A stretch of 64,000 bases of DNA from Actinomycetes bacterium (GTDB taxonomy: Bacteria > Actinomycetota > CALGFH01): NCBI GenBank assembly GCA_035263405.1, contig DATFRI010000095.1:27614-91613 (forward strand). Direction: 5' to 3'. Each line of letters opens with the position of its first letter. The stretch's first letter is position 1. The position numbers were made by a program, and so were the translations under genes. The notes below the pieces were generated by a model. It searched no databases. It was given only the letters and a program-made list of their open reading frames with translations, and had not been told where the DNA came from. Below are positions 1-4,975 of this stretch, one piece after another.

Positions 1-2356
1 CGATCCAGACCGACCAGCGCGGCGGCCGCGGCGCGGCGGCCGCGAAGTCGAGCGGCGGCGTCGGCGCCCGCCATGCGAGCGGGTCCTGCGGCGGCACGCA
101 GGGCCGGTCGCTGGCGGCGTCGAGCGGCCTGCGGGTGTCGCCGATCCGCTCGCGCACGCTGCGGGCGACCAGCTCCAGGTCGGCGCCGAGCTCGAACGGC
201 TCGGGCTCGGGCTCCCGCAGCGGCAGCAGCACCACGCTCCCCGCGGGGTAGCGGCCGGTGTCGAGCCGGCTGCCCATCCGCGGCGTCGCGATCAGGTCGT
301 CGCCGTCGACCGTCACCGTGAGCGGGTCGGAGCTGCCGACCGCGGTCGCAACCGGGCGGGTGCGCACGCGGACGACGTCCCCGTTGCGGAAGGACCTGGC
401 GTGCCCGGGCTCCAGGCGCAGGCGGAACGGGTCGGTCTCAGCCGGCGGCCGCTCGATGACCGCGCGCAGGACGCCCGCGGCGGCGATGCGCGGCCAGCGC
501 CAGGCGATCGCCTCGGCGTCCAGCCCGCTGCCGAAGTCCACTTCGCTGCGGAGCTGCACGTTGGCGCCCCCGGCGAGGTCGTCGGCGCCCTCGGGGGTGA
601 GGATGCCCGGGCCGCCGTACTCGTCCTCCAGCGTGAGCGAGTGGCTCAGCTCGTGCGCGGCCGCCAGCCAGACGAGCGGCACCAGGTCGCTCGGGACGGG
701 CTGGACCCGGACGTCGAACCCCGTGCCGCCGGCGGCGTCGACGAGGTGGTGCTCCTCCTCCTGGTCCAGGGCCACGCAGGCGTAGTGGCCGAGGCCCTCG
801 TCGTTGACGCGGGGGTTGTTGGTGCCGCCCTTGTGGCCGGTGCGGCACAGGATGACCACCAGGTCCCGGTCCTTGCCCTGGCGCGTCCACACCTTCCTCT
901 CCTCCGCCAGCGGCCGGCCGTGGTCGTCCTGGAGGGCGGTCAGGAACGCCTCGAGGTCGTCGTCGTCCAGGCGCAGGGGGTGCAGCCCGATGCTGAACTC
1001 CCCCCGGTCGGGCGTGAGCGTCGGGCGGGAGGACTTGGCGGTGTGGAAGGCGGTGTCGCGCTCGTTGACCAGCGCCCGGTCGTTCAGCGCCAGCCACTGC
1101 GGGTAGGCGTCCTGGGCGCGGCCGATGGTCACGGCGGGACCGTGCAGCGCCTGCCAGGCCGCCTCCCGGGGGGCGTCGAGCGGGCTGCCGTCCGGGTCGT
1201 CGGCAGGGGTCGGCAGCCCCACCTGGTCGATCAGCTCGGCCAGCGACCACTTGGCGGCCGCCGGGTCGGGGGGCCGCGGCAGCGGCACCGGGACGCCGTC
1301 GCCGGCCGGGGAGTCCGCGCCCTCCTGGACGCGGTCCAGCTCGTCCAGGACCGAGATCCCGGCCTGCGGGGACGCCACCCACGCCTGGAAGTAGTTGAAC
1401 CGGTCCTTGAGCAGGTCGAACGGGCGGGTGCGGCGGCGGTGCGAGAGCCGGGCGACCAGCCGACGCACGCAGCGCTCGAAGGTGGCCCGGTCGGCGGCCT
1501 CGAACCCGTCGGGCAGGAACAGGACGTTGCGCACGCCCGGGTCCGCCATCGCGGCGAAGCCGGCGCCGGCCAGATGGTTCACCCGGACCCCGCTGGACCA
1601 GGGCTGCTGGCAGTGCACCTCCGCGGTCGCCTGCGTCGCCGTGGAGGGTGGCAGCGGCCGGTGCACGGTGACCGTCGCCCCGGCGCCGCCGCCCGCGGTG
1701 CAGCGCAGCACGCTGGTGCGCTCCCCGACGGGCTCCCCGTCGGCCGTCTCCTCCAGGCCGGCCGAGCCGTCCGGGCTCGACGCCGACCAGGCCAGCTCGG
1801 GGTCGGCGGAGTCCCGCGCGTGCACGAACACGCCCGCGTGCAGGTTGTCGGCGGTGGACGGGCACCAGTTGGTGAGGTCGCCGAAGGAGCCGTCGGCGAA
1901 CCGGGCCAGCACCGTGAAGCGCATGTTGGTGGCGCCCTCGCGGACGGTCAGCGACGGCGGGGTGAGCCACAGCCGCTCGATCGCGTCGTGGACGTGGACG
2001 CGAACGCGCGCGGTCCAGCTCTGCTGGGCCTCCTCGCCGTGGGTGTCCCGGAAGGTGGAGGTCACCTCGGCCTGGACGACGAACGAGCGCAGCCGCGGCG
2101 GGGGCAGCGGCCCGTCGTCGACGCGCACCTCGCCGGTGGCCGCGTCGACCGCGACGCCGTGCGCGGCGGGGGTGCCTGCGAACGCCGCGGTGAACGAGAC
2201 CGTGACGCCCTCCGGAGGCCCGGCCGCCCAGAAGGACCGCCCCTCGGTGTCCTCCACGATCAGCAGGTAGTCCAGCCTCGGTGACGCCAGGCCCGGCAGC
2301 AGGTGCAGGTCGCGCCCGCCGTAGGGGCTCGCCCAGAAGATCCGCCTGACGGTCAT
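1..2356 (-). CDS. zinc metallopeptidase (HEXXH; M64/IgA-peptidase-like), paralog A, C-terminal part runs off window start
   Basis: Start is ATG (revcomp cat 2354-2356), in frame and 10 nt after the stop of the paralog; GGAG RBS upstream. No stop in this frame down to position 1 (the ORF track omits it because it runs off the edge). nt 590-880 and 300-440 are clearly homologous to 3240-3530 and 2930-3060 of the neighbouring gene. Encodes an AAHELSHSL zinc-binding motif (region 640-660). Confidence 0.6.
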   Translation of the reverse strand, partial: MTVRRIFWASPYGGRDLHLLPGLASPRLDYLLIVEDTEGRSFWAAGPPEGVTVSFTAAFAGTPAAHGVAVDAATGEVRVDDGPLPPPRLRSFVVQAEVTSTFRDTHGEEAQQSWTARVRVHVHDAIERLWLTPPSLTVREGATNMRFTVLARFADGSFGDLTNWCPSTADNLHAGVFVHARDSADPELAWSASSPDGSAGLEETADGEPVGERTSVLRCTAGGGAGATVTVHRPLPPSTATQATAEVHCQQPWSSGVRVNHLAGAGFAAMADPGVRNVLFLPDGFEAADRATFERCVRRLVARLSHRRRTRPFDLLKDRFNYFQAWVASPQAGISVLDELDRVQEGADSPAGDGVPVPLPRPPDPAAAKWSLAELIDQVGLPTPADDPDGSPLDAPREAAWQALHGPAVTIGRAQDAYPQWLALNDRALVNERDTAFHTAKSSRPTLTPDRGEFSIGLHPLRLDDDDLEAFLTALQDDHGRPLAEERKVWTRQGKDRDLVVILCRTGHKGGTNNPRVNDEGLGHYACVALDQEEEHHLVDAAGGTGFDVRVQPVPSDLVPLVWLAAAHELSHSLTLEDEYGGPGILTPEGADDLAGGANVQLRSEVDFGSGLDAEAIAWRWPRIAAAGVLRAVIERPPAETDPFRLRLEPGHARSFRNGDVVRVRTRPVATAVGSSDPLTVTVDGDDLIATPRMGSRLDTGRYPAGSVVLLPLREPEPEPFELGADLELVARSVRERIGDTRRPLDAASDRPCVPPQDPLAWRAPTPPLDFAAAAPRPPRWSVWI

Positions 2357-4975: not shown

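Follow-up and report, generated by a model that had tools for sequence, protein, structure and literature searches.

Tandem M64-like zinc peptidases as the probable variable enzyme of a DUF6603 gene module

To our knowledge, only two peptidases of family M64 have been characterised biochemically, BF3526 and the Thomasclavelia ramosa IgA protease ThomasA, both of them antibody- or peptide-cleaving enzymes of gut bacteria. The subject of this paper is a pair of adjacent genes, here called gene 1 and gene 2, that encode M64-like proteins in an Actinomycetes bacterium. They lie at the edge of a 64,000-nucleotide stretch of contig DATFRI010000095.1, which was analysed as a whole and is referred to as the window. 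The two peptidases are probably (at a rough probability of 0.7) the variable enzyme of a gene module built around the protein family DUF6603, and independent of the sigma factor operon that lies next to them.

Family M64 is defined by the motif HEXXHXXXGXXD. A catalytic zinc ion is bound by His/His/Asp, and a structural zinc ion by the Glu that follows together with three Cys residues (PMC12402451). ThomasA and BF3526 are extracellular or surface peptidases (PMC12402451). A Peptidase_M64 domain has also been proposed bioinformatically as an effector domain of the T6SS (type VI secretion system) in Salmonella pathogenicity island 6 (SPI-6) (PMC10469887). In the Salmonella candidates, as in the window, an M64-type domain is the proposed effector and a variable region stands beside a conserved apparatus. 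The Salmonella proteins differ in that they are 243 residues long, have immunity genes as partners and are associated with a known T6SS, whereas the window proteins have about 855 residues and no evident immunity gene, and their conserved neighbours are unrelated to T6SS. Both cases are bioinformatic only.

Another kind of locus that invites comparison is found among polymorphic toxins and effectors, such as Tc/ABC toxins, Rhs proteins and the cargo of extracellular contractile injection systems (eCIS). In these loci a conserved large core is accompanied by exchangeable enzymatic genes.

The DUF6603 gene of this organism lies just outside the window. A second contig (L042), which matches window positions 9602-1 with 99.8% identity, runs 13.9 kb further. 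On it, DUF6603 begins 169 nt past gene 2 on the same strand, and is followed by three genes called g3, g4 and g5; all four are joined by 4-bp overlaps (Table 1). The NCBI accessions HKF00130, HKF00131 and HKF00132 are consecutive. The module as a whole has the order of one to three enzyme genes, then DUF6603 (approximately 1,150 residues), g3 (1,000-1,120), g4 (1,500-1,600) and g5 (570-600).

The same order is found far beyond this organism, in about 35 genomes. A scan of GTDB species representatives gave 37 loci, with gene order checked by tblastn and clustering. Essentially all of these loci have one to three M64-like copies followed by DUF6603, g3 and g4. In every long contig examined, DUF6603 and then very large proteins lie downstream of the M64-like gene on the same strand, and in many of the genomes examined the last M64-like gene overlaps the DUF6603 gene by 4 bp. 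The carriers belong to Actinomycetota, Acidobacteriota, Chloroflexota, Alphaproteobacteria and other Proteobacteria, Planctomycetota, Bacteroidota, Cyanobacteria and Bacillota. Cultured ones include Rhizocola hellebori, Paractinoplanes ovalisporus, Amycolatopsis kentuckyensis, and Larkinella and Spirosoma species. In Streptomyces canus (L043) the five genes form a clean operon with a convergent gene at its border, and some genomes have the circularly permuted order g4-g5-M64xN-DUF6603-g3. One locus (L020) contains two separate M64-like genes (9866-12622 and 19788-22616), after each of which a DUF6603-like open reading frame (ORF) begins, and may represent two tandem modules.

The first position of the module is the one that varies. 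Searches of the same kind yield over 1,297 homologs for g3 and only about 72 for the M64-like protein. A Myxococcota-type contig (L044) has a 683-residue protein of the PLD family before DUF6603 instead of an M64-like protein. Metagenome loci seeded with DUF6603 were kept as the best 80 of at least 467 matching stretches, and 48 of them had a readable upstream gene. This gene was M64-like in 18 cases, PLD in 3 and something else in 27. Pfam assignments within the last group include Peptidase_M14 (five cases), NAL1/trypsin-like serine peptidase (three), and one each of S8 subtilase, tyrosinase and DUF4056; the remaining genes of this group received no Pfam assignment.

M64-like genes may also be multiplied at this position. 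Tandem arrays of two to three copies occur in L016, L018, L021, L025, L028 and L029. Some of them are recent duplications, such as those in L016, with 66-77% identity among the copies; others are old and orthologous between species (Larkinella, Spirosoma). The zinc motif is present in every tandem copy. The Cys motif is present in all except one copy in L016 (L016_a), whose extracted ORF is short (751 residues).

Finally, the core is found on Streptomyces linear plasmids with flanking tyrosine recombinases. On the plasmid NZ_CP107864.1 of Streptomyces europaeiscabiei (L125, 4190-26328), genes for tyrosine recombinases enclose DUF6603-g3-g4-g5, after which comes a pentapeptide-repeat protein. 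A divergent 828-residue gene upstream of this core was considered as a possible M64-like gene and rejected. DUF6603 crosses the boundary between bacteria and archaea, since it is found on haloarchaeal megaplasmids. It lies among large hypothetical neighbours on the Halobellus sp. plasmid NZ_CP134947.1 (L126, 11293-14916), and likewise on plasmids of Natrinema, Halalkalicoccus and Salinigranum.

The surroundings of the module differ from group to group. Upstream neighbours in Bacteroidota include genes of conjugative-transposon type (DUF1896, DUF3408, RadC). Directly upstream of the closest related cluster (L002, 4239-6829) are PLDc_2, Mrr_cat and ScoMcrA_N genes and an IS110 transposase, which suggests a restriction or defence-island setting. 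In the actinobacterial loci L007, L010, L013 and L022, a divergent regulator of the Streptomyces antibiotic regulatory protein (SARP) type, with Trans_reg_C-BTAD-NB-ARC-TPR architecture and about 850-950 residues, is encoded just upstream of the M64-like gene.

The first-pass annotation had placed the two peptidases in M64, as IgA-peptidase-like enzymes. This assignment is upheld at the level of the superfamily by profile, fold, ligands and the Glu/Cys3 site; it is not upheld by the Pfam threshold or the spacing of the zinc loop, to which the discussion returns below. A search of the PDB with a single sequence returned low-complexity noise only, and the M64 match needed a profile of 40 family members. 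That profile matched 3p1v at an E-value of 4e-11 and 4df9/9qdi at 4e-9, in three collinear segments. The first segment is the first beta-strand (NvLFLpDGF against ILAEGY). The second is the zinc helix with its loop, where vAHElaHsF-tLgDEYGG is aligned with VVHEFGHSFGGLADEY and a one-residue gap is needed. The third is the C-terminal YEGG..YRPxxxCxM....FCPVC, which aligns to the FCPVC Cys motif of 3p1v/4df9.

Structure prediction points the same way. An AlphaFold2 model of gene 1 on the family alignment has a predicted local distance difference test score (pLDDT) of 91.6 and a predicted template modelling score (pTM) of 0.91. Its best PDB matches in Foldseek are 9qdi, 3p1v and 4df9, with E-values of 8e-10 to 4e-9, as expected for the M64 fold. 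Faint PF09471 matches are precomputed for many relatives, and scans of the peptidases against NCBIfam, PADLOC and PHROGs gave no match. An exhaustive hidden Markov model search at E<=1e-30 places at least 780 representative clusters (at 50% identity) in the clade, nearly all with the full architecture of 800-900 residues. Gene 1 and gene 2 are tandem paralogs within a distinct, uncharacterised and sizeable clade of the M64 superfamily, which is not canonical by Pfam or by the literature motif.

According to the family alignment, both predicted zinc sites are kept in this clade, one formed by His/His/Asp with a general-base Glu, the other by Glu and three Cys. Residues H547, H551, E558, C805, C826 and C829 (gene 1 numbering) are invariant in all 40 sequences, E548 is kept in 38 and D557 in 39, the exception having Glu. 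All of these residues are present in both window paralogs, including D557, the putative third zinc ligand. The two members of the alignment with His or Gln in place of E548 may be pseudo-enzymes. Both paralogs read HELxHSLTxxDEYGG, in agreement with the HELxHSL motifs followed by DEYGG that had been described. C-terminal Cys tails had likewise been ascribed to both proteins. In the window this is correct for gene 1 only, as gene 2 is cut at residue 785; its tail is seen in the full-length protein. Because E558 and the three Cys residues are invariant and match the ligands given for M64 (PMC12402451), the Cys tail would correspond to the M64 structural zinc site. The clade is very likely catalytically active, to judge from its residues and the model, and with ligands and fold intact gene 1 and gene 2 would be active two-zinc endopeptidases of M64 type.

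With BF3526 (4df9, 9qdi), BACOVA_00663 (3p1v) and ThomasA (9qdh, 9qa6) the window clade shares the HEXXH helix, the Asp third ligand followed by Glu-Tyr, the second zinc site of Glu and three Cys (C..CxxC), and the N-terminal strand motif (LFLpDGF against ILAEGY). It differs from the characterised enzymes in several respects. First, the window proteins carry about 300 extra residues in two insertions, which in gene 1 are helical (~330-480) and a beta-barrel (~595-725); the barrel weakly resembles EF-Tu domain II and the barrels of ribosomal protein L3. Second, they begin with two Big_2-like Ig domains, for which gene 1 has fold matches to LigA, cadherins and S-layer Ig domains, and which contain the conserved N-terminal motif DxHLLPGLxSPxLD. 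Third, no signal peptide, lipobox or transmembrane segment was found in the 40 family members, and gene 1 has no hydrophobic N-terminus. Fourth, the clade has HEXXH-X5-D in place of HEXXHXXXGXXD and scores below the Pfam gathering threshold. Lastly, the window genes belong to a DUF6603 operon, and there is no reason to expect IgA as their substrate.

All of the relevant genes are on the minus strand, in a window of about 76% GC. The reading frame of gene 1 is open from 2366 up to a GTG at 4975, as annotated at first pass, giving 869 residues. The start at 4975 is not sustained: the N-termini of homologs (MTVxxIxW..GxDLHLLPGL) and the deposited protein of 855 residues place it at GTG 4933. The second gene, on the same strand and cut by the window edge as had been noted, has its ATG at 2356, which is 9 nt past the stop of gene 1. 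The two proteins are 47% identical over 823 aligned columns. At the nucleotide level, one block of about 1,010 nt with 72.4% identity and another of 249 nt with 77.9% bear out the figure of about 75% given earlier.

Of the core proteins, only DUF6603 has a Pfam family. It gave no match in a profile search against PDB sequences, and no mention of DUF6603 or PF20248 was found in the literature searched. A model of the protein from this organism (pLDDT 80.6, pTM 0.51) begins with a helical domain (1-220), continues in some 40 long antiparallel strands (232-882) and ends in a region of mixed structure; it resembles a porin. DUF6603 was absent from 2.9 million viral contigs, and no protein of the cluster matched sheath, tube, baseplate or other phage structural proteins in Pfam or PHROGs. 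The proteins g3, g4 and g5 are hypothetical in RefSeq and have no Pfam, PADLOC, PHROG or PDB-sequence match, except for a Laminin_G_3 tail on one g5.

These observations suggest how the module might work. Gene 1 and gene 2 would fill its first, variable enzyme slot, as active zinc endopeptidases that serve as an interchangeable payload or effector. The payload would belong to a large complex that the core proteins DUF6603, g3, g4 and g5 would form. Within this complex, DUF6603 may supply a pore or translocon, given the helical head, some 40 strands and porin-like look of its model. Tandem duplication would diversify the payload, and transcription would start at a dedicated promoter-like element that gene 1 and the DUF6603 operon have in common.

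Whether DUF6603-g3-g4-g5 amounts to a machine is a separate question. The module resembles effector-delivery loci, or alternatively defence loci, because of its huge invariant proteins, swappable hydrolase, tandem copies, mobile carriage and lack of export signals on enzymes with extracellular relatives. Tentatively, and at somewhat less than even odds, it could be an undescribed multi-protein delivery or defence machine, spread horizontally through at least eight bacterial phyla, with a swappable hydrolase or oxidase payload and a porin-like DUF6603 pore. The likeness to Tc/ABC, Rhs and eCIS loci, drawn from general knowledge, consists in the invariant very large proteins with unrelated hydrolases in one slot, in putative payload genes multiplied in tandem, and in the presence of the locus on mobile elements. 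Unlike those systems, the module has no homology to TcA/B/C, Rhs, or sheath, tube or baseplate proteins; its proposed payload is a separate upstream gene and not a C-terminal fusion; and it is present in Gram-positives, with DUF6603 homologs in haloarchaea as well.

The promoter-like element is 31 nt long and lies shortly upstream of gene 1 (Table 1). A near-identical copy, TGTACAGCCCG-N6-GTGCAGTAGAAACT, is found in the 169-nt gap upstream of DUF6603 on L042. These are the two copies in L042; the one before gene 1 is the sole copy in the window, and there are no others in 78 kb, with 0 expected by chance. Since such an element stands before both gene 1 and DUF6603, it suggests two co-regulated transcription units, each with its own putative promoter or operator.

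Several observations weigh against the view of the peptidases as the variable payload of a DUF6603 module. The first group concerns the peptidases. With Pfam M64 (PF09471), gene 1 scores 21.7 bits, in its C-terminal segment only, and for gene 2, in its N-terminal segment, the score is 15.8 bits for the part within the window and 20.3 at full length, against a gathering threshold of 26. The canonical HEXXHXXXGXXD is absent, as the loop is one residue short and without Gly: of 199 clade members, 185 have HEXXH-X5-DEY and one has the canonical spacing, while Flavobacteriia members have X4. The second group concerns the slot. Its proportions are biased, because the metagenome loci that were kept are those closest to M64-linked DUF6603. 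No N-terminal targeting domain common to the M64-like and other first-position proteins was detected, and no immunity-like gene is evident at the module. Likewise, the promoter-like element was found upstream of none of the relatives' clusters, and is thus confined to this genome. Finally, g3, g4 and g5 have no recognisable domains, so that the nature of the machine is conjecture.

One alternative is that the module serves in anti-phage or anti-mobile-element defence, with the first gene as an abortive-infection effector and the large core proteins as sensors. Defence systems typically combine exchangeable effectors with large conserved proteins, and both PLD proteins and proteases are common among their effectors, but the M14 carboxypeptidase, S8 subtilase and tyrosinase found in the same slot would be atypical in an abortive-infection role. 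That the peptidases appear to be cytoplasmic speaks for such a role; against it, the core proteins show no sign of a sensor domain of the ATPase, nuclease or NTPase kind. The genomic setting is suggestive, with plasmid copies flanked by tyrosine recombinases and with PLDc_2, Mrr_cat and ScoMcrA_N genes just upstream in L002. However, PADLOC 2.0 gave 0 matches for the M64-like proteins, DUF6603, g3, g4 and g5, and only 2 of 66 upstream neighbours match its models. On this balance a defence function is unlikely.

A second alternative is that the M64-like proteins process the large proteins of their own module, as maturation proteases needed for self-assembly or activation. The 4-bp overlap with DUF6603 in many genomes fits tight translational coupling, the lack of an export signal is in keeping with such a role, and the Ig-like domains could dock onto partner proteins. 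Sister modules, however, have a non-proteolytic PLD protein or a tyrosinase in the slot, and in L125 the slot is empty or divergent; the core therefore does not require a dedicated maturation protease. The presence of two to three divergent copies with intact motifs also fits diversification of a payload better than housekeeping processing. A maturation role is accordingly quite improbable.

The earliest reading of the locus concerned its regulation. In the first-pass annotation, the peptidases were targets of the adjacent extracytoplasmic function (ECF) sigma/anti-sigma operon, reached by read-through or attenuation across a palindrome-bearing spacer, which would make them an envelope-stress-induced protease pair. 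The peptidase genes do lie directly 3' of the sigma operon on the same strand. The spacer is also strongly structured, with a GC content above 80%, a folding z-score of -3.55 against shuffled sequences and a hairpin with 28-nt arms, and an ECF sigma gene occurs about 2.6 kb upstream of one unrelated PLD-type module (L044). Still, in a GC-rich actinomycete the proximity of an ECF sigma operon counts for little as evidence of regulation.

Comparison with relatives speaks against such control. No homolog of the window sigma/anti-sigma pair stands beside any of about 35 related clusters, and for the 28 relatives whose upstream 5 kb was scanned, the Pfam families listed for the ORFs include no Sigma70 domain. 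A tblastn search for ECF sigma genes near relatives found only those at L044 and L052, and is insensitive, since the two ECF sigmas of the window did not detect each other. In some actinobacterial relatives that place is taken by the divergent SARP regulator. This region of the window is rich in ECF genes, a second one lying at 11489-12238, and the peptidases have no export signals, which would be unusual for envelope-stress proteases. An ECF-type motif like that of the sigma gene is missing both from the spacer before gene 1 and from the stretch upstream of DUF6603; gene 1 and the DUF6603 operon share the separate promoter-like element.

The spacer itself offers no better support. With the start of gene 1 moved to GTG 4933 it measures 288 nt, and not 246 as first given. 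On the relevant strand no canonical terminator or sigma-70 promoter consensus was detected in it. Both of the palindromes to which a role had been attributed, GGTCCCCGGGGACC at 5073-5086 and GGGGGTGCGCGCACCCCC at 5226-5243, do exist. The idea that they are special was rejected, as their frequency is at or near chance for this GC content: the window has 18 perfect palindromes of at least 14 bp against about 21 expected under a first-order Markov model, and 5 of at least 18 bp against 1.8 expected (maximum 6). The longest in the window has 24 bp (CGCCTCCTCGCCGGCGAGGAGGCG, 11714-11737), and one of 18 bp, GCCCGGCCGCGGCCGGGC, lies within gene 1 itself (2779-2796). No element conserved before orthologs, of the kind that attenuation would call for, was found, the relatives having neither the sigma operon nor the spacer motifs. 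With a sigma pair that is not conserved, palindromes near chance frequency and a promoter-like element of their own, read-through into the peptidase genes is unsupported, and control by the sigma operon has little chance of being right.

That the peptidases are ordinary stand-alone secreted nutritional proteases which merely neighbour the other genes is hardly credible, for although the characterised enzymes ThomasA and BF3526 are extracellular or surface proteins (PMC12402451), none of the 40 members has a signal peptide or lipobox and the order of DUF6603, g3 and g4 is strictly conserved in eight phyla.

The operon upstream of gene 1 consists of an ECF sigma gene and a gene for a 321-residue membrane protein, co-transcribed with an 11-nt overlap. 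The sigma assignment made at first pass is secure: TIGR02937 gives 55.8 bits (cutoff 42.9), and TIGR02983 (SigE family) 128.7 bits, below its cutoff of 141.55. The label of anti-sigma for the second protein depends on position, overlap and one transmembrane helix only, as no anti-sigma domain (zf-HC2, RskA or other) was matched in Pfam or NCBIfam. Like known ECF sigma/anti-sigma operons, this one has a sigma gene translationally coupled to a single-pass membrane protein, and an upstream motif of ECF type, GAAC-N17-CGTC. Unlike ECF-regulated operons, it lacks an anti-sigma domain in the partner and a candidate motif before the peptidases, and its adjacency is not conserved in relatives. The motif TGAACC-N16-CGTC is probably an autoregulatory promoter of the sigma gene, although chance could readily produce such a match, as 26 of 100 shuffled sequences contain at least one. 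A second ECF sigma gene and its anti-sigma gene are found some 4-5 kb away, which is why ECF genes may be regarded as simply dense in this region.

An operon on the plus strand (6979-9300), divergent from the sigma gene, encodes a 235-residue protein with no Pfam match, a membrane protein of the MauE family (7696-8235, E 2e-16), a protein with weak likeness to thioredoxin (8237-8755) and a Cys-rich protein of 181 residues (8755-9300), whose N-terminus RRQLLRAAATMGTVAGLGALGL has the look of a twin-arginine signal. Together these genes look like a mau-like cluster or one for the maturation of disulfide-rich proteins, and it might just as well be this set that the ECF sigma factor really controls.

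Table 1. Positions of the genes, motifs and control-region elements discussed in the text, in the window or on contig L042
Feature	Sequence	Position	Strand	Remarks
Gene 1 (VKG45_14525, HKF00132.1), M64-like zinc peptidase, 855 aa	window	2366..4933	-	deposited protein 100% identical
Gene 2 (VKG45_14520, HKF00131.1), M64-like zinc peptidase paralog, 856 aa at full length	window	2..2356	-	residues 1-785 in window
Gene 1 residues 1-245, two Ig-like (Big_2/cadherin-like) beta-sandwich domains	window	4199..4933	-	secondary structure and fold matches
Gene 1 residues 250-855, M64-type catalytic domain with two insertions	window	2366..4186	-	
Gene 1 zinc motif HELAHSLTVTDEY	window	3257..3295	-	putative catalytic zinc ligands H547, H551, D557; general base E548; second-zinc ligand E558; roles by homology to BF3526 and ThomasA (PMC12402451)
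Gene 2 zinc motif HELSHSLTLEDEY	window	617..655	-	conserved alignment columns
Gene 1 Cys cluster C805...C826-x-x-C829 (CVMR..FCPVC)	window	2447..2521	-	counterpart of M64 structural-zinc Cys trio
Promoter-like element TGTACAGCCCG-N6-GTGCAGTACAACTC, 31 nt	window	4996..5026	-	-35-like TGTACA, 17-nt spacer, -10-like TACAAC; ends ~63 nt before GTG 4933
DUF6603 gene, 1,176 aa	L042	10001-13531		PF20248 E 3e-121
g3, 1,121 aa	L042	13528-16893		
g4, 1,614 aa	L042	16890-21734		
g5, 596 aa	L042	21731-23521		
14-bp perfect palindrome GGTCCCCGGGGACC	window	5073..5086	.	
GC-rich imperfect hairpin, 28-nt arms, 11-nt loop	window	5107..5173	-	candidate terminator of sigma operon without U-tract
18-bp perfect palindrome GGGGGTGCGCGCACCCCC	window	5226..5243	.	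within last codons of putative anti-sigma ORF
321-aa membrane protein, putative anti-sigma	window	5222..6187	-	11-nt overlap with sigma gene; Arg-rich segment, then one predicted transmembrane helix
ECF (group IV) sigma-70 factor, SigE-family-like, 175 aa	window	6177..6704	-	Sigma70_r2 E 5e-11, r4_2 E 4e-14
ECF-type promoter candidate TGAACC-N16-CGTC	window	6802..6827	-	~97 nt upstream of sigma start; match in 26/100 shuffled sequences
zf-HC2 anti-sigma with MDMPI_N/DinB_2 domain	window	10231-11409	+	
Second ECF sigma (Sigma70_r2/r4_2)	window	11489-12238	+	~4-5 kb from first sigma

For the M64 superfamily, the clade described here is a large one from soil and other environments. Its zinc loop is modified, its domain architecture is new and it lacks an export signal, implying that its biology differs from that of the characterised enzymes. 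The module is a more interesting lead than the peptidases, since it comprises four very large and uncharacterised proteins, DUF6603 and three without a Pfam family. A swapped first gene beside a conserved core usually marks effector-delivery or defence systems, and the window peptidases thus offer an entry point to a possible new system, which could be studied in the cultured carriers Streptomyces canus, Rhizocola hellebori, Amycolatopsis kentuckyensis, and Larkinella and Spirosoma species. If the proposal is true, the module would represent an apparatus of a new class, for effector delivery or for defence, and the two peptidases of the window would be its duplicated and diversified payloads.

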